Origin: Crocinitomicaceae bacterium
GTDB taxonomy: Bacteria; Bacteroidota; Bacteroidia; Flavobacteriales_D; Crocinitomicaceae
DNA: 64,000 nucleotides
Assembly (NCBI GenBank): GCA_049611865.1
Contig: JBMZAY010000010.1
Coordinates: 20,354-84,353 of the forward strand
Direction of reading: 5' to 3'
In this document: piece by piece, positions 6,799-18,995 of the stretch
Position numbering within the stretch: the stretch's first letter is position 1
Layout: each line of letters opens with the position of its first letter
Notes under the pieces: model-generated
What the model was told of the DNA's origin: nothing
Databases searched by the model: none
Seen by the model: the letters and a program-made list of their open reading frames with translations, nothing else
Position numbers and translations under genes: made by a program

Positions 6799-8394
6799 GT
6801 GAATAAACAGCTTGGAATTTATCTCTTCTTGTTGACTTGCTTCTTTTATACGGATGCGAATGGCCAGCTGTATTTACCACTCAATAATTATTATCAAAAT
6901 GAAGCAGAACGACATTTTTTGAGGGATAGTGTCTCAAGTATTGCCGGCTCTCATAGAAGCATGAAACCCATTTTGGATAAGAAAACTTACCCAGAAAAAA
7001 TCTATAACAGCGAAGGCAAACATTATTATTGGATCACTCAAAAAATTTTCAAAGAGAACTTTATTGTCTTTGAAGGAGAAGACTATTGGTGCAGCATTGA
7101 TCCTATTTTGGATCTCGAATTAGGCAGTGATTTTTCCGCAGACAGTCTTGAACGATTATATTGGAACACCAGAGGAATAAGAATACAAGGTCGATTCTTT
7201 GACCAAGTAGGTTTTTCAACAGTCATTTATGAGAATCAAGCGATTCTACCTCATTACCAGCGCACTTATGCTGATGACCACGGTGAATTTTTCCCGAACA
7301 GCATCTTAACCCAATACCAACAAAACAATGCCATAATTCCAGGTTATGCGCGCACAAAGTCTTTTAAAACTAACGGGTATGATTTTGGATTTGCTGAAGG
7401 ATACGTGAACTATATCCCTTCGAAACACTTCAATATTCAGCTCGGTAATGGAAACCATTTCATCGGTAACGGCTACCGATCACTGTTGCTATCCGATTTC
7501 ACGACCAATTATCCTTTCCTTAAACTCGAAACAAACCTCTGGGAAGATCGCATTCAATACAATACGATTTATTCGTTACATCAAAACCCATATCGACTGG
7601 TTGCATACACCACTCCCGAAGCGACTTATGAGCGTAAAATTGGCACCTACCACTACCTTGACTTTGCTATCAACAAACATATACAACTGGGAATTTTTGA
7701 AGGAAATCATTGGCGTTTAGTCGACTCTTTAGGTTCTCACAGTCCAGATTACCTTTTTATCAATCCAATACCTTTTATCAACACGATCATCAAACAAAAT
7801 GATAGCACTGGATTTTGTTCAGTTATGGGATTTAATCTGGCAGGCAATATTCACCAACTCTCAGCTTATTCTCAAATCGTTGTTAGCAATGGTAAACTCG
7901 GCGGCTATCAATTTGGGTTAAAATATTACGATTTATTGATCGATCAGCTGGACCTGGGCGTCGAATACAACCAAGTATTTGCCAACACCTATTTGAATGA
8001 AAATGAACGGTATAATTACAGTCACAACAATTTACCGATCGCTCATCCATTTGTCAATGATTTTCAGGAATTGGTGGTGAGATTAGAATATCAACACAAT
8101 CGTTTTTTTGTTAGGAATAGCCTAAATTATTCGCAACGAACATACCAAGACAGCTTGCCTGTATACAACACGATCCTGGACCCATTGACAGAGAACAAGT
8201 CAGCAAATACACATCGCGGAATCTTCCTTTACAACCAACTCGAAATCGGTTATCACTTTAACAAAACAAATAATTTACAATTCTTTTTAGGACACTTGTA
8301 TCGCAATCAGAATGCCCCATCTGATAACCCGTTAACGAATTATGCGTATATAGGCGTGCGTACTGAGTTGAAGAATAAATACAGAGACTTTTAG
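6799..8394 (+). CDS. RemB/Wzi-like outer-membrane protein, paralog 1
   Basis: Signal peptide; FIGNGYRSLLLSD motif shared with 9479..10996; beta-strand-rich with an aromatic C-terminus. Confidence 0.65.
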   Translation: MNKQLGIYLFLLTCFFYTDANGQLYLPLNNYYQNEAERHFLRDSVSSIAGSHRSMKPILDKKTYPEKIYNSEGKHYYWITQKIFKENFIVFEGEDYWCSIDPILDLELGSDFSADSLERLYWNTRGIRIQGRFFDQVGFSTVIYENQAILPHYQRTYADDHGEFFPNSILTQYQQNNAIIPGYARTKSFKTNGYDFGFAEGYVNYIPSKHFNIQLGNGNHFIGNGYRSLLLSDFTTNYPFLKLETNLWEDRIQYNTIYSLHQNPYRLVAYTTPEATYERKIGTYHYLDFAINKHIQLGIFEGNHWRLVDSLGSHSPDYLFINPIPFINTIIKQNDSTGFCSVMGFNLAGNIHQLSAYSQIVVSNGKLGGYQFGLKYYDLLIDQLDLGVEYNQVFANTYLNENERYNYSHNNLPIAHPFVNDFQELVVRLEYQHNRFFVRNSLNYSQRTYQDSLPVYNTILDPLTENKSANTHRGIFLYNQLEIGYHFNKTNNLQFFLGHLYRNQNAPSDNPLTNYAYIGVRTELKNKYRDF

Positions 8395-8400
8395 CAAACC

Positions 8401-9486
8401 ATGAAAGATTATCACCTCATATTATCCTTTATCACTGCATTTAGTGTTGTGTTGCTGGCTACTCCCGCTTTGATAAAAGTAGCGAAGTTAAAGCACTTGG
8501 TTGATGAACCAAGCGAAGCTCGAAAAAAACATACAACAAGTATCCCTACTATTGGTGGAGTAATCATATTTAGTGCGTTTATCTTTTCGTCATTTCTTTG
8601 GCTGCCCGTCAACGACCAGGGTGTTATCGAAGGACTGGAACAATTCATGTTTTTAATGGCCAGTCTAATCCTCCTTTTCTTTGTCGGGGTAAAAGACGAT
8701 ATCATCGGTATGTCGCCAATGAAAAAGTTGATTTCACATGTTATGGTGGGCTTTATTCTCGTGGTAATGGGAGGTATAAAAATAACCAGTTTTCATGGGA
8801 TATTAGGAATGGACATTATCCTTCCAGATTACGCGAGTATCTTGCTCTCGATATTTATCTATATAGTAGTAGTAAACTCAATCAACTTAATTGACGGTGT
8901 TGACGGACTTGCTAGTGGGATCGGCTTACTTTCCACTTGTGTATTTGGAATATGGTTTGCGCATTACGACCAAATGCATTGGGCTGTGGTATCATTTTCA
9001 TTAAGTGGTGCTTTGCTGGGCTTTTTGATATTTAACTTTAATCCAGCTCGTATATTTATGGGCGATTCTGGATCATTAATTATTGGAGCGGTCATTAGCG
9101 TCTTAGCGATCCAGCTGATTGAGTCACCTGTAGATCAACTGCCAGAAGGTTATCAACTCATTTCTACACCAGTGATGGCCATGGCTATACTGGCCTATCC
9201 TTTGCTAGACACCTTGCGGGTGTTTATCATTCGTACATCCAGAGGAAAATCACCTTTAAGCGCTGACCGAACACATTTGCATCATCGTTTACAAGATCGT
9301 GGATTTGGACATAAGAAAACCGTGCTCATCATTTACATTTTCAACTTATGCATGATGGCGCAAGCTTTTTTTATTCAGTTCGAAAATCCTAATTTCAGCT
9401 TCCTTGTAAGTCTGGGCTTCGCAGCTTTGTTCATTGTCATAGTTTTCGCCGGAAAGAAAAAAAAGCATACTGACGAGAGTGAATAA
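8401..9486 (+). CDS. Glycosyltransferase family 4 (WecA/MraY-like polyprenyl-phosphate HexNAc-1-P transferase)
   Basis: KKHTTSIPTIGG, GVKDD, NSINLIDGVDGLA, FNFNPARIFMGDSGS, DRTHLHHRL; about 11 TM segments. Confidence 0.9.
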   Translation: MKDYHLILSFITAFSVVLLATPALIKVAKLKHLVDEPSEARKKHTTSIPTIGGVIIFSAFIFSSFLWLPVNDQGVIEGLEQFMFLMASLILLFFVGVKDDIIGMSPMKKLISHVMVGFILVVMGGIKITSFHGILGMDIILPDYASILLSIFIYIVVVNSINLIDGVDGLASGIGLLSTCVFGIWFAHYDQMHWAVVSFSLSGALLGFLIFNFNPARIFMGDSGSLIIGAVISVLAIQLIESPVDQLPEGYQLISTPVMAMAILAYPLLDTLRVFIIRTSRGKSPLSADRTHLHHRLQDRGFGHKKTVLIIYIFNLCMMAQAFFIQFENPNFSFLVSLGFAALFIVIVFAGKKKKHTDESE

Positions 9487-10996
9487 GATATTACTTTTCA
9501 TATTAGCCTTGCTGCTCATTTCACACGCTGGACTGGCACAATTATCCGTTGAGCCACTTCACTACCGTACTCGGATTAACAATGACTCACTTTATTTTGA
9601 AGACAATCAATCAATTCATTCAGGCATTTTACCTCTTATTACAAACAATTATAATCGAAAAATAGGCGTTGATAAAGTCCCCATAATTAAGCGCAAAAAC
9701 AGTCATTTAAGAATTTACCCTCTAGCTAATTTGACAGGAGGATATGATCTCAATGCAAACAACCCAGGCGCGGTTTTTAATCTCGGCGCAGGATTAGGAA
9801 TGGACTACAGCGCTTCCAAACTTTTTTTAACTGGGAAATTTCTGCCTTTTTATGCGAATGCGGCTTATATATCGGACTCGACGCAAAGAAGCTTTGATAT
9901 GTTTCCAGGGGCAAGTAGAAGTATAGCAAACCAAACCTATCATTTTAGTGAGTTATTGATTGGCTACAAACCCAATAAATTCTTTACTTTTTTGGGAGGA
10001 TATGGTCGCAATTTCTTTGGAGAAGGGTATCGTTCTCTCTTGCTTTCTGATAATGCAACGGGCAATCCATTTTTCAAAATCGAAACGCAATTTGGAGACA
10101 TTAAATATGTCAATCTTTATCAAGCTTGGAAAGACAATACCGTTGATCCATTTGATCGGAGTTTAGATCGTCCAAAATATGCGGCGATGCATTACATCAG
10201 CTGGAATGTAACGGGAGAATTCAACGTAAGTGTTTTTGAGACAATAGTTTGGCAAGCAAATGACACCTTAGTTAATAGAGGTTTTGATCCAAACTATCTG
10301 AATCCAATCGTGTTTTATCGCCCTGTTGAATACGGAAACGGATCAGCGGATAATGTACTCTTAGGGGCAAATTTATCGTACAAAATTGATCGATCAAACT
10401 GCCTTTACACACAAATCATATTAGACGACTTTTTACTCAAAGAAATTCGTGCACGTTCGAGGTGGTGGGCAAATAAATACGGTTTTCAATTTGGTTATAA
10501 ATCGTCCGATTTTGCTGAGGTGGACGACCTTTATTTTCAAACAGAAATTAATGTGGTACGTCCGTTCACCTTTTCACACCGGACCTCTACTCCATCTTAT
10601 GGTCACCTCAACGCTTCTGTAACACATCCTGTAGGAGCGAATTTTTGGGAAGCATTGAATATCGTTTCCAAACCGATTGGAAATTTTAGATTAACCAATA
10701 AAATGACTTACAGTGGTTATGGTATGGATACATCCCAAACGAGCTATGGTCAGAACATATTTGAGCCTTACACAAACCGTGAACAAGAGTATGATCATTT
10801 TATCATGCAGGGACTGAAGCACAATGTTTTCATTAACAATCTAACGGTAGAGATGCCACTATTAAAATCTGTAGAATTAATGGCATTTTTCAGTTACCAA
10901 ATGCGCTTTGCAACAATTGCCCAAGACAGCTATTTTCAGCAGCAATTTCAAATAGGAATTCGATCTAGAATTTGGAATAGTTATACTGATTTCTAG
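9479..10996 (+). CDS. RemB/Wzi-like outer-membrane protein, paralog 2
   Basis: Signal peptide, NFFGEGYRSLLLSD, YLNPIVFYRPVEY, DNVLLG, NKYGFQFG, VRPFTFSH. Confidence 0.7.
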   Translation: MNKILLFILALLLISHAGLAQLSVEPLHYRTRINNDSLYFEDNQSIHSGILPLITNNYNRKIGVDKVPIIKRKNSHLRIYPLANLTGGYDLNANNPGAVFNLGAGLGMDYSASKLFLTGKFLPFYANAAYISDSTQRSFDMFPGASRSIANQTYHFSELLIGYKPNKFFTFLGGYGRNFFGEGYRSLLLSDNATGNPFFKIETQFGDIKYVNLYQAWKDNTVDPFDRSLDRPKYAAMHYISWNVTGEFNVSVFETIVWQANDTLVNRGFDPNYLNPIVFYRPVEYGNGSADNVLLGANLSYKIDRSNCLYTQIILDDFLLKEIRARSRWWANKYGFQFGYKSSDFAEVDDLYFQTEINVVRPFTFSHRTSTPSYGHLNASVTHPVGANFWEALNIVSKPIGNFRLTNKMTYSGYGMDTSQTSYGQNIFEPYTNREQEYDHFIMQGLKHNVFINNLTVEMPLLKSVELMAFFSYQMRFATIAQDSYFQQQFQIGIRSRIWNSYTDF

Positions 10997-11098: not shown

Positions 11099-11995
11099 AT
11101 GGTAGCTGAAGATACTGTGGCAGAAAAAACGCAATCCACCTCGAAAATTAAAGACTATGCTTTGCTTCTTAAGCTTCGCTTGGCATTTCTAGTGGTTCTC
11201 TCTGCTTTATCGGGGTATCTTTTTGTAGGAGGTGATTTCAATTTGAATTTTGTTTATCTGATTATTGGTGGTTTTCTTATAACCGGCGCATCCAATGGAT
11301 TTAACCAAATTATTGAGCGTGACTTAGATAAGATGATGAATCGCACATCCAATCGACCTATTCCTTCAGGAAGAATGAGCATTAACGAGGCATTCATCGT
11401 GTCAACGACTTCTGGAATAATCGGGACATTCCTATTGTTCCAGATTAATTATTTTGCCGGAATACTGGGATTATTGGCTTTTGTTATGTATGTATTCATT
11501 TACACGCCGTTGAAACGCATAACCCCGTGGGCTGTTTTTGTTGGTGCATTTCCAGGCGCCATTCCACCTATGTTGGGTGTTTTAGCAGTTACAGGGACGT
11601 TTCAAGGAGAGAACGGATTAATCGCTGGCCTTTTATTTTTCATCCAATTTGTATGGCAATTCCCGCATTTTTGGGCAATTGCATGGGTACTTGACGATGA
11701 CTATGCCAAAGCTGGTTTCTCGCTATTACCAAGTAAAAAAAGAAAGTCAAAACGATCCGCATTTCACATCATGACATACACCCTACTTATGGTGCCTGTC
11801 AGCATTTTACCTTGGACACTCGAATGGACATCTGATATCACATTAATCGTCGCAACATTGGCGGGAATGTGGTTCTTTGTAAAAGCATATATGCTCTACA
11901 TCCGTTTGGATGATAAATCTGCCCGAAAACTCATGTTTGCCTCATTCATTTACTTACCCATTATCCAATTTTTGTACGTATTTAATAAAATTTAA
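11099..11995 (+). CDS. cyoE: Protoheme IX farnesyltransferase (heme o synthase)
   Basis: NQIIERDLDKMMNRTSNRPIPSG, YTPLKR, GAFPGAIPP, WQFPHFWAIAW, DDYAKAG. Confidence 0.96.
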   Translation: MVAEDTVAEKTQSTSKIKDYALLLKLRLAFLVVLSALSGYLFVGGDFNLNFVYLIIGGFLITGASNGFNQIIERDLDKMMNRTSNRPIPSGRMSINEAFIVSTTSGIIGTFLLFQINYFAGILGLLAFVMYVFIYTPLKRITPWAVFVGAFPGAIPPMLGVLAVTGTFQGENGLIAGLLFFIQFVWQFPHFWAIAWVLDDDYAKAGFSLLPSKKRKSKRSAFHIMTYTLLMVPVSILPWTLEWTSDITLIVATLAGMWFFVKAYMLYIRLDDKSARKLMFASFIYLPIIQFLYVFNKI

Positions 11996-12000
11996 AAATT

Positions 12001-13062
12001 GTGGACAAAATCGAGAAGAATCAGGAGATATCGCCGGAATTAAATGCTAAGATGAAGAAGAATCTCCTTTGGATTTTCATCTTTGCGGTGGTGATGATTT
12101 TTGCAGGATTAACGAGTGGTTACCTTGTCTCTAGAGGGGGGAATTTTTGGGTAAGTATCAGTATGCCAACGGCATTTCAAATTAGTACTGCATCCATTCT
12201 TTTAAGTAGTGGATTTCTTTTAAAAGCGCGATGGGCAGTCAAGAACAGCAAATCAACTGTTTTAAAGCTTTCGTTGGGTCTAGCCTTTTTTCTGGGTGCA
12301 ACTTTTGGAGTTTCACAATTCATTGGATGGACGCAATTAACCGAAAATGGCAATGTGCTTTCTGGAGAAATCATAAATATTAGGGGGAAATATGGAAAAT
12401 ACTTCACTTTAATCTACGAAGGAAAAGAAATCAGTTTTGACGGCTATGATTTTTACATAAAAGGCGAAATCATTTCAGAGGAATTAGCGACAGAGATGAA
12501 AACATTTGCTCAGTCCTTGATTGATGGATCGCAATCAGAAAACAAAGAATACCAACTGACCGATTACGGTACTAAATTTGCTATTCGTTTCTCCAATAAC
12601 CTATTGACTTACGAAAACAAATCGATTAAGTCGAACGGCTCTTTACTGTCTGATGTACAACATGATAGGCTTTATCATTTCGCAGACAATATCGCCAATG
12701 ACAAGGGAGACTTTATCATGAAAGGAAAATACGGAGAAGATTACATCATTTATTACGACAGTGAAGCGTTAGAATATAAGAACAGACAGTTTTACTGGAA
12801 AGGAGAGCCCCTTTCGAAAAAGAAAGTAAATGACCTGAATGCTCAAAAAAATACAGCTAGTTCATACATCTATGCTTTTACAGGAATGCATTTCTTGCAC
12901 TGGCTAGGTGGTGTATTCGCTCTTTTAGTTTTGTTTATCAAGGGGTTACGCTTAAAGTACACAGCCAATAACTATCTTGGATTAACACTGGGCTCTATTT
13001 ACTGGCATTTTCTAGGCATATTGTGGCTTTATTTATATGCATTTTTAATTTTTATTCATTAA
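12001..13062 (+). CDS. Heme-copper oxidase subunit III paralog 1, with a ~160-aa repeat-containing loop insertion
   Basis: VMIFAGLTSGY, STASILLSS, SQFIGW, TGMHFLHWLGG and IYWHFLGILW are subunit III motifs; soluble insert at about aa 122-283. Confidence 0.88.
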   Translation: MDKIEKNQEISPELNAKMKKNLLWIFIFAVVMIFAGLTSGYLVSRGGNFWVSISMPTAFQISTASILLSSGFLLKARWAVKNSKSTVLKLSLGLAFFLGATFGVSQFIGWTQLTENGNVLSGEIINIRGKYGKYFTLIYEGKEISFDGYDFYIKGEIISEELATEMKTFAQSLIDGSQSENKEYQLTDYGTKFAIRFSNNLLTYENKSIKSNGSLLSDVQHDRLYHFADNIANDKGDFIMKGKYGEDYIIYYDSEALEYKNRQFYWKGEPLSKKKVNDLNAQKNTASSYIYAFTGMHFLHWLGGVFALLVLFIKGLRLKYTANNYLGLTLGSIYWHFLGILWLYLYAFLIFIH

Positions 13063-13087: not shown

Positions 13088-13786
13088 ATGGCATCTGCTA
13101 CGCAAGAAATCGATCAATCAAAACTTTGGGATGGAAAAGAGTCACCGTTAAGAGTGAGTTATGGAAAAATCATGATGTGGTTTTTCTTAGTTTCAGACGG
13201 TTTGACTTTTGGAGGATTATTAACTGCTTTGGGATACGCTAAATTCTCAAACCCTGAAACAGCTATGACATGGCCTTCAGGTGAGAGCGTTTTCTTTCAC
13301 TTCCCAGGAACACACGCAACACTTCCATTGTTGTATGTGGCATTCATGACTTTCATTTTGATTGTATCATCGGTAACGATGGTTCTTGCCGTTGAAGCGG
13401 GTCATAGAATGGACAAAAAAGGAGTCATTAAATGGTTGTTATGGACAGTCGTTGGTGGTTTGATTTTCTTAGGATCTCAAGTTTGGGAGTGGAGCACTTT
13501 TATCGCTGGTCCTGATGGAGACTTGTCTACATGGGCAGACAACGCAACACTTGCACACAATCCTTATGGCCCTACTTTATATGCTAATTTCTTCTTCTTT
13601 ATCACTGGTTTCCACGGATTCCACGTATTTACAGGAGTGGTTTTTAACGGTTTGGTACTTAGAAATGTAATTCGAGGGGTTTATCACAAACGTGGCCATT
13701 ATGAAATGGTTGAAAAAGTTGGTTTGTATTGGCACTTCGTTGACCTTGTATGGGTATTTGTATTCACATTCTATTATTTGGTGTAA
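13088..13786 (+). CDS. Heme-copper oxidase subunit III paralog 2
   Basis: MWFFLVSDGLTF, SSVTMVLA, SQVWEW, FFITGFHGFHV, GLYWHFVDLVWVFVF. Confidence 0.92.
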   Translation: MASATQEIDQSKLWDGKESPLRVSYGKIMMWFFLVSDGLTFGGLLTALGYAKFSNPETAMTWPSGESVFFHFPGTHATLPLLYVAFMTFILIVSSVTMVLAVEAGHRMDKKGVIKWLLWTVVGGLIFLGSQVWEWSTFIAGPDGDLSTWADNATLAHNPYGPTLYANFFFFITGFHGFHVFTGVVFNGLVLRNVIRGVYHKRGHYEMVEKVGLYWHFVDLVWVFVFTFYYLV

Positions 13787-13827: not shown

Positions 13828-14202
13828 ATGGTAAGAGACGACATTATAGAATATTCGTTAGACACGCACCACTCAGAAGAAGAAGGTGTTAAGATCAGAA
13901 AGAAAATTTGGAAAGTAACTGCGATCCTTTCGATCGTTACGATACTAGAAGTTGCAGTTGGAGCAATGTTCCCTAAAGACGAGGTAAGCGGGGTTGCTTG
14001 GGCATTGATCAAATACGGATATATCTTACTAACAATAGTTAAAGCTGGATACATCGTTCAAGTTTTTATGCACCTTGGTGATGAGCGAAAGTCATTACGT
14101 TACATGGTACTTGTTCCATATATTATCTTTATCCTTTATTTGATCTTCATCATTTTGATGGAAGCTTCATACATCAAAGGAACTTGGGACACACTGCATT
14201 AA
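13828..14202 (+). CDS. Cytochrome c oxidase subunit IV family protein
   Basis: ILSIVTILEV and TIVKAGYIVQVFMHLGDE pattern, 3 TM segments, operon position. Confidence 0.85.
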   Translation: MVRDDIIEYSLDTHHSEEEGVKIRKKIWKVTAILSIVTILEVAVGAMFPKDEVSGVAWALIKYGYILLTIVKAGYIVQVFMHLGDERKSLRYMVLVPYIIFILYLIFIILMEASYIKGTWDTLH

Positions 14203-14232: not shown

Positions 14233-14970
14233 ATGAAATCAGGGAAACGCCTGATATTAATGGCACTCGTACTACTTGGGCCTGGCCTTGTCATCTATTT
14301 TATTTCTAAAACAGTGAATAATCATTTTATTCGCTTACCGTACTTAGGATGGGAGTATACCTTGGATTCAAGTGGAAATAAGTTGGACTCCACAGCTTAT
14401 CAAGTTCCAGATTTCACTTTAACCAGTTTTAACGGTGAACCAATAACTAGAGATTCGATCGAGAACAAAGTCATTGTATTATCTACGATTCAGAACAGTT
14501 GCCCTGATTTGAAATCATGTGGCATGAGTATCTTTCACTTTGACGAGATCTTTTTTCATAAATTGGTGAAAAATCAAGACAATTATTGGAACGTAAGGGT
14601 ATTATCAATCCTCACAGACCTTAATGGAAATCCAATTGATAGCATTGCACCTGAACTGAGAGAAGAATTAATTGCCTACGATACTACTGGAATCTGGTGG
14701 TTTGCAACTGGCGATGTTTCTCCATTTTACAACTTTGATTATTACGGTAAAAAATTCATTAACCAACCCGCTTCGAATAAAGATGGCGAAATAGGTGAAA
14801 AAGCTTTCACGAACAGTCTTGTATTAATTGATACCGAAGGGCATATCCGCGCTGTGACAGGCGCAAAGTCAGATACAGATATCAGAAACTTCTTCGATAT
14901 GGTAAAACTGCTTAAAAAGCAGGAATTTGATGAAATTCGGCCCACTGAAGATGTCGCCGAGACCGAATAG
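14233..14970 (+). CDS. Membrane-anchored SCO/thioredoxin-fold protein with a non-canonical motif
   Basis: N-terminal TM, VPDFTLTSFNGEPIT, CPDLKSC, SLVLIDTEGHIR; alignable with the downstream SCO. Confidence 0.65.
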   Translation: MKSGKRLILMALVLLGPGLVIYFISKTVNNHFIRLPYLGWEYTLDSSGNKLDSTAYQVPDFTLTSFNGEPITRDSIENKVIVLSTIQNSCPDLKSCGMSIFHFDEIFFHKLVKNQDNYWNVRVLSILTDLNGNPIDSIAPELREELIAYDTTGIWWFATGDVSPFYNFDYYGKKFINQPASNKDGEIGEKAFTNSLVLIDTEGHIRAVTGAKSDTDIRNFFDMVKLLKKQEFDEIRPTEDVAETE

Positions 14971-15082
14971 GTAAGTACCCATTTTTGATTTTTCTGTCTG
15001 TCAACTTTTCTGCATTATTTTCAAACGCTCCTGAGCTCAACTACTCTAAAAAGTAGTAACTTTGTACACCAAATAAAACGCA

Positions 15083-15736
15083 ATGCGCATATTCTTATAT
15101 ATATTTTTTGCATCACTATTTTTTGCTTGCAATGGCAGCTCTGAGGGAGATGTTCAAAACACTGAACCGAAACATTCTGGTTTACCACATCTCGGTTTTC
15201 ATGACTATGGAGTTGATACCATTTACCATACTGTGCCAGAATTTTCCTTAATGGCTCAAGATAGCTCAATAGTAACGCAAGATATGTTTGAAGGCAAGGT
15301 CCACGTCGCAAACTTCTTTTTCACAAGTTGTCCTGCTATATGCCCGGCTATGATTGAACAAATGAAACGCCTACAAGGAAACACTTCAGATATTGAAGAG
15401 ATCGTTTTCTTATCGCACACCATAGATCCTGAGCGCGATTCAATTCCGCGACTGAACTGGTATATAAATGAGAAAGAAATTGATACGCATAATTGGTATT
15501 TCCTATATGGTGAACGCGAGATCGTGTATGATCTTGGCGAAAACGGATATATGATCAATGCAATGGAAGACGAAGCTGCAGAAGGTGGTTTCTTGCACTC
15601 AGAACATTTTGTATTGATTGATCGAGAAGGTCATATTCGTGGTTTATACGACGGAACCCAAACCGTTGAAGTTGATCGCCTAGAAAAAGACATTCGAAAA
15701 CTATTAAAAATTGAATATGGCCTCAAAACAAAGTAA
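15083..15736 (+). CDS. SCO1/SenC family copper chaperone (lipoprotein)
   Basis: Lipobox FFAC, FFTSCPAICP (CxxxC), FLHSEHFVLIDREGHIRGLYDG. Its own TAACTTTG element lies at 15057-15064. Confidence 0.93.
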   Translation: MRIFLYIFFASLFFACNGSSEGDVQNTEPKHSGLPHLGFHDYGVDTIYHTVPEFSLMAQDSSIVTQDMFEGKVHVANFFFTSCPAICPAMIEQMKRLQGNTSDIEEIVFLSHTIDPERDSIPRLNWYINEKEIDTHNWYFLYGEREIVYDLGENGYMINAMEDEAAEGGFLHSEHFVLIDREGHIRGLYDGTQTVEVDRLEKDIRKLLKIEYGLKTK

Positions 15737-16301
15737 TATTTCAGATATCGAAAAGCGATACAAGCCGCTGGTAATTTTATTGTCGATTGTCATCCCGTTG
15801 GTGGTGGCACTCTTGTTTGGCATGCCAAAAGTTGAAGGTGTCGACCTAAGTTTCTTACCGCCTATTTACGCAAGCATCAACGCATTGACGGCCGTTCTTT
15901 TGGTTGCTGCTGTTATCAGCATCAAAAAAGGAAAACGCATTGTGCATCAACGATTAATGCTCTCAGCTGTATTATGTTCCCTCTTATTCTTAGTTGGCTA
16001 CGTGGCCTATCATTTAACTTCTGATACGACTTTATACGGTGATCTGGATCATAATGGGACGTTATCTGTTAACGAGACCGCTCAGTTAAGTTCAGGGGCC
16101 TATGTATATTATTTTATTCTTGCTTCGCACATCATACTTAGCATTGGGGTTATTCCTTTGGTGATGCAAACTTACTTGAAAGGATGGGCAGACAACTTGG
16201 AATCTCACCGAAAGTGGGCTAAGGTTACTTTCCCAATCTGGTTGTACGTTGCTGTTTCTGGTGTCGTAGTTTATTTGATGATTAGCCCATTTTACGGATA
16301 A
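15717..16301 (+). CDS. DUF420 family membrane protein
   Basis: LPPIYASINA, HQRLM, FLVGYVAYH, YYFILASHIILS, HRKWAKVTFPIWLYVAVSGVVVY; usual position after SCO. Confidence 0.88.
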   Translation: MASKQSNISDIEKRYKPLVILLSIVIPLVVALLFGMPKVEGVDLSFLPPIYASINALTAVLLVAAVISIKKGKRIVHQRLMLSAVLCSLLFLVGYVAYHLTSDTTLYGDLDHNGTLSVNETAQLSSGAYVYYFILASHIILSIGVIPLVMQTYLKGWADNLESHRKWAKVTFPIWLYVAVSGVVVYLMISPFYG

Positions 16302-16302
16302 T

Positions 16303-17121
16303 CTACCAACCTCGCATCTCACAGGGACTACGTTTAAAAGGATTAAAGGTAATCATTACACCGTAGAAGCTGTACCAGTCTTTGTTACCAGGATTACCAC
16401 GATTAGCGCCATCAGCTACATCTATTCTTTTATCAGATAATTCTGCCGCTAGTGGACCATTTTGAGCACGGAGTAGATCTGGATCAACATAATTTCCAGA
16501 AATGTCATCGATATAATCTGTGAAAGTTTTTCGAATACCGTATTCAACTGACACAGCTAATCGATCCTTAATGTTGATTTTAACGCCAACACCTAACGGA
16601 ACAGTTAATTGGTTGAGGGAATAATTATTCTTTCTTTTGAGAGACGTACCTTGTCCTTCGGTACCCAATGGTTGTAACTCAAGATCATTTCCATTGTAAT
16701 TGGTCGTAGGATTCATCCGCATATAAGCCAATTGATAAAAGAAATAAGGTGTTATAGGATGTTTCATATTATTGATATTGTAATTAAACAAATCAATCTC
16801 ATAACCTATTGCCAATTCCATGATCTGCGATTGAAAATTGAGGTTTCGGTTCTGCAATGTCGGATCATTATCCCTGGAATCATCACCATAAACTGAACCA
16901 TAAAAAGCAGTAGCCCGAATATTATGTCGCTTAGATGGGTTATAGCGATAAACAAGCCCAGCTCCAGGTTTGCTGAACCTGAAATGAGAACCTGGATTCA
17001 TATCCCCAATATAATATGAACCTCCTCCGAAAAAACCAATTTCAGTGCAAGTTTTATAAGCTTGCCCATACACCATTGTTGCACACCAACACATTGTGCC
17101 TAATACCAACCCACGTAACAT
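16303..17121 (-). CDS. DUF6089/PorG-like outer-membrane beta-barrel, copy 3
   Basis: Signal peptide, EIGFFGGGSYYIGD, NRNLNF, LQPLGTEGQG, RKTFTDYIDDISG, KDWYSFYG. Confidence 0.75.
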   Translation of the reverse strand: MLRGLVLGTMCWCATMVYGQAYKTCTEIGFFGGGSYYIGDMNPGSHFRFSKPGAGLVYRYNPSKRHNIRATAFYGSVYGDDSRDNDPTLQNRNLNFQSQIMELAIGYEIDLFNYNINNMKHPITPYFFYQLAYMRMNPTTNYNGNDLELQPLGTEGQGTSLKRKNNYSLNQLTVPLGVGVKINIKDRLAVSVEYGIRKTFTDYIDDISGNYVDPDLLRAQNGPLAAELSDKRIDVADGANRGNPGNKDWYSFYGVMITFNPFKRSPCEMRGW

Positions 17122-17170
17122 GGTGTAATAACGGTGAGATTATAGAGATATTGTAAAAAAATAAGAGGAT

Positions 17171-17998
17171 TTACCAGCCTCTCATATCACAAATATTCTT
17201 TTTGAAAGGTTTAAAGGTCAGCATGATGCCATAAAATGAATACCAATCTTTATTCCCAGAATTTCCTCTATTCATGCCTGCGGTCCCCATTCCATTTAAA
17301 CTACGATCTGCTAAATCTGCGGAAAGAGGCCCGTTAGACGCGGCTAAAATATCGGGATCAAGGTAGTTTCCTGATACATCATCTAAATAATCTGTGAATG
17401 TTTTTCGGATGCCATACTCTATAGATATTGCTACACGCTTTCGCAAATTAAACTTAAAGCCAATACCAAGTGGAACGGTAAATTGATTTAAATTATAGCG
17501 TCTAGACTTTGTACCCGGAATACCTGTACCTTGACCTTCCGTACCCAACGGTTGTAAAGCTACTTCATTACCATTAATCTCGGCTTTCGGATTAATTCGA
17601 GTATAGGCAAGTTGATAAAAGAAATAAGGTGTAAACGGATACTTCATATCATTTATTCGATATTTTAAGATGTCAATTTCGAACCCCGCAGCTAATTCAA
17701 TGATTCTTGATTTAAAACTCAAATTTCGATTAACTTGATCGCTGCTTTTGCTCTCTGCGTCAAAGGCAAAAACATTTCCGTAATTAGCTGTAAATCTGAG
17801 CGAATGACGTGTTGATAAATTATATCGAAAAATAAGACCACCTGCTAGTTTACTATCAACGAAATGGCGTGTTCTATTTAGATCTCCGACATAATAAGAA
17901 CCTCCTCCAAAAAAACCCATTTCCGCGCAAGTTTTGAAACCTTGAGCCGAAACCAAATTCACTGATATAAAGCACAATGCAAGAATTAACGATCGCAT
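17171..17998 (-). CDS. DUF6089/PorG-like outer-membrane beta-barrel, copy 2
   Basis: Clear paralog of 16303..17121 with the same motifs. Confidence 0.75.
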   Translation of the reverse strand: MRSLILALCFISVNLVSAQGFKTCAEMGFFGGGSYYVGDLNRTRHFVDSKLAGGLIFRYNLSTRHSLRFTANYGNVFAFDAESKSSDQVNRNLSFKSRIIELAAGFEIDILKYRINDMKYPFTPYFFYQLAYTRINPKAEINGNEVALQPLGTEGQGTGIPGTKSRRYNLNQFTVPLGIGFKFNLRKRVAISIEYGIRKTFTDYLDDVSGNYLDPDILAASNGPLSADLADRSLNGMGTAGMNRGNSGNKDWYSFYGIMLTFKPFKKNICDMRGW

Positions 17999-18003
17999 GC
18001 AAA

Positions 18004-18921
18004 TTAAAACTTCGGAATATATACTTGACCCTTCATGAATCGATAATGAAAAGAGAAAACTCCAAACATATACGCATCATTCCATCTGGGATCACCTCTT
18101 TGTAAATAATTATTTCGACCATCAACATATTGAATGACACCGTTCAAATCAGAGTCCAAAGAACGATCTGAAAGCGCTGCTGCAATATCACCATAATTTG
18201 CAGCGATTTCATCCTTTAAATAGTAGGAAGTGCTTACATCATCAATATAATCAGACATCGTATAGCGCAGACTCAATTCAAAGCTGATAGCCATTTGTTT
18301 GTCAATACGATATTTAACGCCGGCACCGAGGGGAATAGCCAATGTATATCTTTTGTAAGGATCTGGACGTCCTGCTAATCCTTGACCTTCTGTACCAAGG
18401 GGTTGAAGCGCTATCCAATCGCCATTATAATTAGCCTTTGGATTAAAGAATGTAAGTCCAACCCCTGCATAAAAATAAGGTGTTAAAGAGAACGCTTTGT
18501 TCCCTATTACTCCACGTAATTTATACCTAGGATGTACTTTATCGGCATAAGGGAAATACTCAGCATATGCAGCAATCTCTCCGAGATGCGAGCGGAAACT
18601 TAAGTTTCTATTGTTTCGGACAAAGTTTTTCGTATGTGCGTCATCCCCACTGAGTAGCGCCCAAAGCACATTTCCGCGGACTGAAAAATATGGGCTAAGC
18701 ATATACTTATAACCCATCATCATTGCCGAACGTGTATGTCTAAGTCGCAAATCTTTGATACCATGTGTACCAACACCTTTAGCTCCACCAAGATCCCCAA
18801 GAAAGTTAGAAGCACCAACTCCTGCATACACTTCATGGCGCACAGATTTCCATGCTTGTCCATAGACAAACCAAGCAGAGAGTAGTAAAGTTAAAGTCAG
18901 TAAGCCTCTTTTCATCCGCAT
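18004..18921 (-). CDS. DUF6089-like outer-membrane beta-barrel, copy 1 (divergent)
   Basis: GVGASNFLGDLGG, NRNLSF, ALQPLGTEGQG, SDYIDDVS, NDAYMF. ATG start at 18921 or 18915. Confidence 0.7.
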   Translation of the reverse strand: MRMKRGLLTLTLLLSAWFVYGQAWKSVRHEVYAGVGASNFLGDLGGAKGVGTHGIKDLRLRHTRSAMMMGYKYMLSPYFSVRGNVLWALLSGDDAHTKNFVRNNRNLSFRSHLGEIAAYAEYFPYADKVHPRYKLRGVIGNKAFSLTPYFYAGVGLTFFNPKANYNGDWIALQPLGTEGQGLAGRPDPYKRYTLAIPLGAGVKYRIDKQMAISFELSLRYTMSDYIDDVSTSYYLKDEIAANYGDIAAALSDRSLDSDLNGVIQYVDGRNNYLQRGDPRWNDAYMFGVFSFHYRFMKGQVYIPKF

Positions 18922-18995
18922 AGTGTACGACAAAATACTATCGTTCTGTTACAAACAAATATAAGAAAATTCGTGTTATTCCTCAACTTGAACGT

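Follow-up and report, generated by a model that had tools for sequence, protein, structure and literature searches.

A predicted periplasmic ectodomain of three tandem repeat units in a divergent subunit III-like protein from a Crocinitomicaceae oxidase gene cluster

Introduction

Subunit III of cytochrome oxidases is usually seen as a purely membrane-embedded, cofactor-free stabiliser, and in known oxidases it lies distant from the CuA entry site. Two subunit III-like proteins, CoxO and CoxP, are encoded in a single A-type oxidase operon of Bradyrhizobium, which we take to be a precedent for the gene pair described here, albeit from an unrelated phylum; we know of no periplasmic repeat domain in either protein. 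For extra protein mass on subunit III, analogies are offered by the soluble mitochondrial subunit COX6B, which sits on the enzyme's P side, and by the greatly enlarged COX3 of ciliates, neither of which has a sequence or fold relationship to the domain reported below.

Nearer to the DNA analysed here is F. johnsoniae, of the same phylum and with the same ACIII-aa3 gene system, whose oxidase has a five-helix subunit III through which the contacts between ACIII and aa3 run (Sun et al. 2018, as summarised in PMC8361435). ActA, in turn, bears an extra, mobile cytochrome c domain (PMC5928083; PMC8552683), and in the F. johnsoniae-type system this domain feeds the oxidase directly (PMC5928083).

Here we analyse a 64,000-nucleotide stretch of a Crocinitomicaceae genome (the window, meaning that whole stretch) in which a subunit III-like gene, cox3a, coexists with a canonical paralogue, cox3b. 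Actinobacterial CtaE, E. coli CyoC and B. subtilis QoxC, subunits III of A-type haem-copper oxidases (PF00510), have the five-helix fold in common with cox3a, which also lies in an oxidase gene cluster. Their sequences, however, are recognisable in cox3a at TM4-5 only, they bear in their first helix an acidic residue that cox3a is without, and where they have a short loop cox3a carries a 166-aa periplasmic repeat domain. A paralogue of an otherwise membrane-embedded protein has gained a conserved soluble domain by tandem amplification in steps. With moderate confidence, we read cox3a as the subunit III-like part of the genome's single ACIII-linked aa3 oxidase and its amplified three-unit loop as a cofactor-free structural or docking ectodomain.

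cox3a is a divergent first copy of subunit III

The gene cluster and the parts of cox3a are arranged as follows.

11099..11995, + strand: ctaB/cyoE, haem O synthase, directly upstream of cox3a (TIGR01473, 257 bits)
12001..13062, + strand: cox3a, 353-aa divergent COX3-fold protein with a GTG start, carrying the repeat insert (ORF, Pfam, Foldseek)
12034..12345, + strand: TM1-TM3 of cox3a, helices aa 12-45, 58-81 and 85-115 (AlphaFold2), equivalent to canonical subunit III helices 3-5
12352..12855, + strand: periplasmic insert, cox3a aa 118-285, between TM3 and TM4
12379..12531, + strand: repeat unit 1, aa 127-177, three strands and a long helix (unit HMM E 1.2e-20, hhalign, AlphaFold2)
12553..12702, + strand: repeat unit 2, aa 185-234, three strands and a long helix, the most diverged (unit HMM E 5.4e-17, hhalign, AlphaFold2)
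12718..12849, + strand: repeat unit 3, aa 240-283, three strands and a short helix into TM4, the best conserved (unit HMM E 1.1e-17)
12856..13056, + strand: TM4-TM5 of cox3a, helices aa 286-316 and 326-352 (AlphaFold2), the segment that COX3 models recognise
13088..13786, + strand: cox3b, 232-aa canonical five-helix subunit III with no long loop insert (Pfam COX3 at aa 27-230)
13828..14202, + strand: oxidase subunit IV (COX4_pro; Pfam PF03626, E 1.3e-13)
14233..16301, + strand: SCO-like 245-aa ORF, SCO1/SenC and DUF420 (Pfam), assembly genes completing the conserved cluster

The GTG start of cox3a lies 5 nt past the stop of ctaB. Pfam COX3 (PF00510) scores the protein above its gathering threshold (33.1 bits, cut-off 23.8) over aa 288-350 only, and the NCBIfam subunit III models score it far below their cut-offs. 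In sequence searches of the PDB, the C-terminal part matches CtaE and COX3 (E 6.6e-8) and aa 25-123 weakly match CtaE helices; HMMER likewise weakly aligns TM1-TM3 with residues 31-134 of M. smegmatis CtaE. Val30 stands opposite Glu36 of CtaE in the HMMER alignment, and the conserved acidic residue of canonical helix 3 is therefore absent from cox3a, whereas cox3b, by eye, keeps an Asp there (VSDGLTF). AlphaFold2, run on a 45-sequence alignment of the family, models five TM helices (pLDDT 90.1, pTM 0.79), and Foldseek matches this model to COX3, CtaE and CyoC chains only, with probability 1.0 and a TM-score by target of up to 0.79, the best being M. smegmatis CtaE. Tetrahymena COX3 chains of 563-582 aa are among these matches; the extra mass of cox3a, an in-chain tandem repeat, is unlike that of ciliate COX3 and of COX6B.

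cox3b aligns with CyoC over all five helices (PDB phmmer, E 3.5e-14). Because the match of cox3b to CyoC and CtaE extends over all five helices and that of cox3a is mainly C-terminal, we regard cox3b as the canonical protein and cox3a, by Pfam threshold and modelled fold, as a divergent paralogue within the COX3 superfamily and the first of two subunit III genes. The initial annotation had described a cytochrome oxidase subunit III carrying an insertion; the COX3 fold stands, but the carrier is the divergent first paralogue and the canonical copy is its 232-aa neighbour.

The gene order ctaB-cox3a-cox3b-cox4-SCO-DUF420 is conserved in 98 of 98 loci, spanning every class of loop length described below, and all 98 have the cox3a-cox3b tandem, including those from Chitinophagales, Sphingobacteriales, Bernardetiaceae and Flavobacteriaceae. 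Elsewhere in the genome, on another contig, the one COX1 gene lies in an actA-actB-actC-actD-actE-actF-coxII-coxI cluster, whose ActA has an N-terminal cytochrome c domain (aa 66-157), and cox3a and cox3b are the only COX3 genes. The genome thus has a single ACIII-aa3 system, of which cox3a is, on the strength of gene context, a putative subunit.

That so long a cox3a gene should be an artefact of mis-assembly, gene fusion or a wrong reading frame has a probability close to nil. The frame is intact, the AlphaFold2 model is confident, and the same architecture is found in more than 125 independent genomes and in 359 homologues in the database; its conservation across those genomes led us to dismiss an artefactual or fusion origin.

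Three repeat units fill the loop between TM3 and TM4

The loop between TM3 and TM4 measures 166 aa in cox3a and 5-11 aa in insert-free orthologues, which are 188-201 aa long in total. These lengths bear out the initial annotation both in its insertion of about 160 aa, placed at 12364-12849 (cox3a aa 122-283), and in its figure of roughly 190-200 aa for a five-TM subunit III. The three aligned repeats that it had proposed are also statistically significant. The 33-aa segments at aa 129-161, 187-219 and 242-274 align without gaps, with ungapped BLOSUM62 scores of 67 for units 1 and 3 (11/33 identical), 37 for units 2 and 3 (9/33) and 28 for units 1 and 2 (5/33). The top off-diagonal 33-mer within the insert scores 68, a value reached by none of 1,000 shuffled inserts, whose maxima average 18.3 +/- 5.9 and peak at 43. 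When the 45-sequence cox3a alignment was cut into three unit segments and compared by hhalign, units 1 and 3 matched with 98.8% probability (E 7e-17), units 2 and 3 with 98.5% (E 3e-15) and units 1 and 2 with 98.1% (E 1e-13), the last alignment extending over 48 columns and through the helices, as expected from the matching helix that had been noted after units 1 and 2.

The AlphaFold2 model places strands at 135-139, 142-146 and 151-153 and a helix at 160-177 in unit 1, strands at 193-197, 203-205 and 208-211 and a helix at 218-232 in unit 2, and strands at 248-252, 258-260 and 263-266 and a helix at 273-281 in unit 3. As modelled, the module is a three-stranded beta-meander of roughly 55 aa that ends in a helix, in keeping with the strand/helix repeat domain first suggested. 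Units 1-2 are modelled at pLDDT 94-96 both in the whole protein and in the insert by itself; for unit 3 and the junctions, confidence drops to pLDDT 55-86 when the insert is modelled alone.

The cytoplasmic loops of cox3a hold Lys/Arg and zero acidic residues, and the TM1-2 loop is uncharged. Taken with the established topology of subunit III, these charges put the insert on the periplasmic side, where it had originally been placed. The earlier observation that it has no heme or metal motif was upheld as well: a search for Cys, His or Met ligands and for CxxCH found no Cys in the insert, and none of its 2 His and 2 Met is invariant in the 45-sequence alignment. A slightly acidic domain (22 K+R, 26 D+E) in a periplasmic position on the oxidase might serve as a docking site not for ACIII but for a soluble donor of electrons, for example a soluble cytochrome c. 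We consider this highly improbable, since known structures place subunit III at a distance from the CuA entry site and the cluster has no linked donor gene. Furthermore, the cytochrome c domain of ActA already feeds the oxidase directly in the F. johnsoniae-type system (PMC5928083).

The repeat module matches no described domain

Searches for known domains returned nothing for this region. Pfam has no match at E <= 10 to the insert or to any single unit; with all of cox3a as query, NCBIfam and the PDB sequences match the membrane helices only; for the insert, PDB phmmer yields just chance-level caspase matches (E at least 0.18); and Foldseek of the insert against the PDB finds no fold match (best E 1.7, TM-score at most 0.24). 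These results agree with the initial proposal of an undescribed domain, and none of the papers found in our literature search describes such a subunit III ectodomain. PDB sequence searches gave no Bacteroidota subunit III sequence and no atomic model with sequence for the aa3 part of the F. johnsoniae supercomplex.

The closest named relatives of cox3a, in Crocinitomix, Lishizhenia, Fluviicola and Taishania, are all Crocinitomicaceae. To look further, a profile of the insert was built from 37 sequences taken from the loci and searched against 1.84 billion representative proteins. It matches 64 of them, all consistent with COX3-like proteins or fragments: the full-length matches are of COX3-like length and align at about residues 115-290, and the others are short fragments or single-unit forms. 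By this search, the insert domain is shown to be confined to the cox3a-type subunit. The module defines a domain family that is absent from Pfam and has no structural match in the PDB. By sequence and modelled fold, the ectodomain matches no described family, and its carrier is otherwise a member of the COX3 superfamily.

The insert evolves under purifying selection

Among the 32 invariant columns of the 45-sequence alignment, many fall within the insert (G129, G132, Y189, G190, G236-D237-F238, G242, G245, Y259, N261, R262 and F264). Mean pairwise identity is 0.45 for the insert, 0.51 for TM1-3 and 0.66 for TM4-5; by unit, it is 0.54 for unit 3 and 0.41 for units 1 and 2. Against the closest orthologue, pN/pS is 0.106/0.907 for the insert (about 0.12, with synonymous sites saturated), 0.121/0.691 for TM1-3 and 0.050/0.654 for TM4-5, the pN of the insert not exceeding that of TM1-3. 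These substitution patterns show purifying selection on the insert comparable to that on the membrane core. No DNA-level repeat was found within the insert, which, together with the saturated synonymous sites, indicates an ancient duplication; a recent duplication of the units was ruled out on the same grounds.

The main rival to a structural or docking role sees the insert as growth tolerated in a permissive loop, with repeats kept because they must fold and serving no specific function. We judge this rather unlikely, and the low pN/pS and many invariant residues of the insert are among the points against it; further evidence on both sides comes from the distribution of the units, from other inserts and from the search for partners below.

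A copy-number series points to amplification in place

Sampling at three levels defines the range of the insert. In the Flavobacteriales, 235 of 401 genomes contain a match; across the phylum, the sample gave 2 of 301, both from the family of the window; and every sampled genome of Crocinitomicaceae (about 125, from at least 18 genera) carries all three units. This distribution, which the initial annotation had wished to see checked, limits the insert domain to part of one bacterial order. Within that range, the TM3-TM4 loop of cox3a falls into discrete length classes.

5-11 aa, 0 copies: Chitinophagales, Sphingobacteriales, Bernardetiaceae, Flavobacteriaceae such as Croceivirga, Owenweeksia and a Cryomorphaceae MAG (proteins of 188-201 aa)
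31 aa, partial copy: one small clade
54-72 aa, 1 copy: many uncultured Flavobacteriales families
109 aa, two-unit size: one small clade with a protein of 296 aa, in which the unit HMM detects one unit only
163-177 aa, 3 copies: Crocinitomicaceae and a few neighbouring families
243 aa, 3 copies and some 75 further residues rich in strands: a second large family with proteins of 403-454 aa

In the second large family (for example L007:2322-3614 in genome G020, and P0157-P0167), the extra residues precede TM4, as in EYNVKDGKVY...IKDGEWVQLRQEL. These ~75 residues of the 403-454-aa proteins may represent further degenerate units.

The single-copy form, found in sister Flavobacteriales families whose cox3a is 236-270 aa long, has a homologous module in the corresponding place of the loop (unit HMM E 3e-9 to 6e-5) and has in common with the window protein the motif G-x-Y-G-x-D-[YF]...G..L....G.[YF]Y. 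It differs in having one unit (54-72-aa loop) and no long helix, whereas cox3a of the window has three units and a long helix in two of these. The initial annotation had proposed a domain grafted onto the oxidase; the 0/1/2/3/3+ series speaks instead for amplification in place from a single-copy module that sister families still possess. Relatives with 0, 1, 2, 3 or 3+ copies thereby form a natural series for the birth of an ectodomain on a respiratory enzyme.

Two trees bear on how the series arose. In a quick tree of the membrane core, poorly resolved in its deep branches, the loop classes cluster strongly, needing 9 changes where shuffling gives 46.8 on average. A second tree, built from the single units of triple-unit sequences in Crocinitomicaceae and one related family, groups them by position and not by species: it needs 4 label changes, the minimum being 3, and shuffled labels need 70.7 on average. 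Since units cluster by position, the unit tree shows a single triplication, before the sampled triple-unit sequences of Crocinitomicaceae and the related family diverged. For most single-copy orthologues the unit-3 HMM gives the highest score, and the membrane-proximal unit 3 is probably the original copy, with units 1 and 2 added upstream.

For a tolerated expansion, the series cuts both ways. Lineages alike in their ACIII-aa3 system differ in copy number, from 0 to 3+, as one might expect of it, but the retention of all three units in every sampled Crocinitomicaceae genome and the clustering of units by position over deep divergence argue against it.

Unrelated inserts occupy the same site

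The initial annotation stated that Flavobacteriaceae place a long insert in the second paralogue. Croceivirga bears this out, with a cox3a of 193 aa (8-aa loop, no insert) and a cox3b of 326 aa, against 353 and 232 aa in the window; its long cox3b insert is unrelated to the module. Overall, cox3b orthologues range from 226 to 385 aa. We considered the cox3b insert as a relative of the cox3a module and rejected it: the hhalign probability is below 1%, and by the unit HMM no cox3b contains a unit. The loop of cox3a itself can also hold something else, as in a Flavobacteriales MAG (L052:3989-5014) with a Cys-rich, unrelated 166-aa insert (GCTDTLALNYN...DDGSCYYTCE) that was inserted independently at this position.

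Unrelated inserts in the same loop, in cox3b and in this one cox3a, mark the site as permissive and favour a tolerated expansion, at least to the extent that part of the growth could have been tolerated and not selected.

The cox3b inserts have features of their own. In other genera cox3b has a variable TM3-TM4 insert of about 110-150 aa (L023:5063-6112, L030:2930-3994, L092:4672-5652), and in Crocinitomicaceae this insert contains conserved His motifs (AGxHH, FQHAAxxGH and LHDGS), the L011 copy being very His-rich. The genus of the window, with its cox3b of 232 aa, is missing the insert. The cox3b insert may bind metal.

Possible roles and partners of the ectodomain

In our preferred reading, the TM3-TM4 loop grew by in-place tandem amplification of the roughly 55-aa module into a 166-aa three-unit ectodomain, which may have a structural or docking, non-catalytic role at the periplasmic face of the oxidase. 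Unit 3, the membrane-proximal one, would probably pack on the enzyme, since it is the best conserved and is modelled less confidently apart from the membrane part, and units 1-2 would project outward. The ectodomain might then stabilise the complex or contact a periplasmic partner. Because subunit III forms the ACIII-aa3 interface in F. johnsoniae, ACIII is a candidate partner, through either its periplasmic part or the mobile cytochrome c domain of ActA, and with subunit III as the ACIII-aa3 contact in the one solved Bacteroidota case, the domain becomes a candidate for lineage-specific control of the supercomplex.

A more specific version of this reading would make the ectodomain a rigid periplasmic arm, so far without a described counterpart, that organises the supercomplex, touching ACIII or corralling the ActA cytochrome c domain at the CuA site, with unit number setting reach or geometry. 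We regard it as speculative and unlikely. If true, the number of units (0 to 4+) would tune the reach or geometry of ACIII-aa3 across Flavobacteriales lineages.

Co-variation with unit number was sought among the candidate partners. CoxII length does not track it, the alignments spanning residues 3-390 in all loop classes; ActE is of similar length everywhere and does not track it; and ActA, compared over 38 genomes, has only an indel of roughly 30 aa, without correlation to the units of cox3a. Among the cluster genes, none is specific to three-unit forms and none follows the number of units. That no co-varying partner emerged from CoxII, ActA and ActE lengths or from the cluster genes is a further point in favour of a tolerated expansion.

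The ActA indel was seen as a loss of ~30 residues (aa ~388-418 of L102:4101-5549; 38 genomes) in families f2, f4, f5, f8, f11 and f12, the others keeping them. CoxII (L102:13480-14829) is a 450-aa protein with ~140 residues between its TM domain (aa 74-148) and its cupredoxin domain (aa 292-376). This architecture is common across the order, and the last ~55 residues match only the genus of the window and, in part, a few other genomes.

The position of cox3a, between ctaB and the SCO/DUF420 assembly genes, together with the absence of the canonical helix-3 acidic residue (Val30 for Glu36 of M. smegmatis CtaE), could instead point to assembly, in which the ectodomain would transiently hold or guide periplasmic maturation, for instance CuA loading by SCO proteins or haem a handling. 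This is distinctly improbable in our estimation: lineages without the insert have the identical gene order, the insert has no metal-binding residues, and the SCO genes are invariant with respect to unit number.

Other features of the locus

Between subunit IV and SCO1, the 245-aa ORF (14233-14970) has no Pfam match, carries a CPDLKSC motif and is kept in nearly all loci, and its orthologues match a SCO1 query; it probably encodes another SCO-like thiol-disulfide or copper protein, a divergent one. Upstream of ctaB, paralogous ORFs of 531 aa (6799-8394) and 505 aa (9479-10996) lie on either side of a 361-aa polytopic membrane ORF (8401-9486). The N-termini of the two paralogues resemble signal peptides, their common motifs are GYRSLLLSD, F.K.ET and C-terminal ..DF, and the 505-aa gene is often found upstream of ctaB in related loci. 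Beyond the cluster, on the - strand (16303-18933), three tandem paralogous ORFs of 272, 275 and 309 aa have the motifs LQPLGTEGQG, GNKDWYSFYG and C-terminal MRGW and look like members of an outer-membrane protein family.
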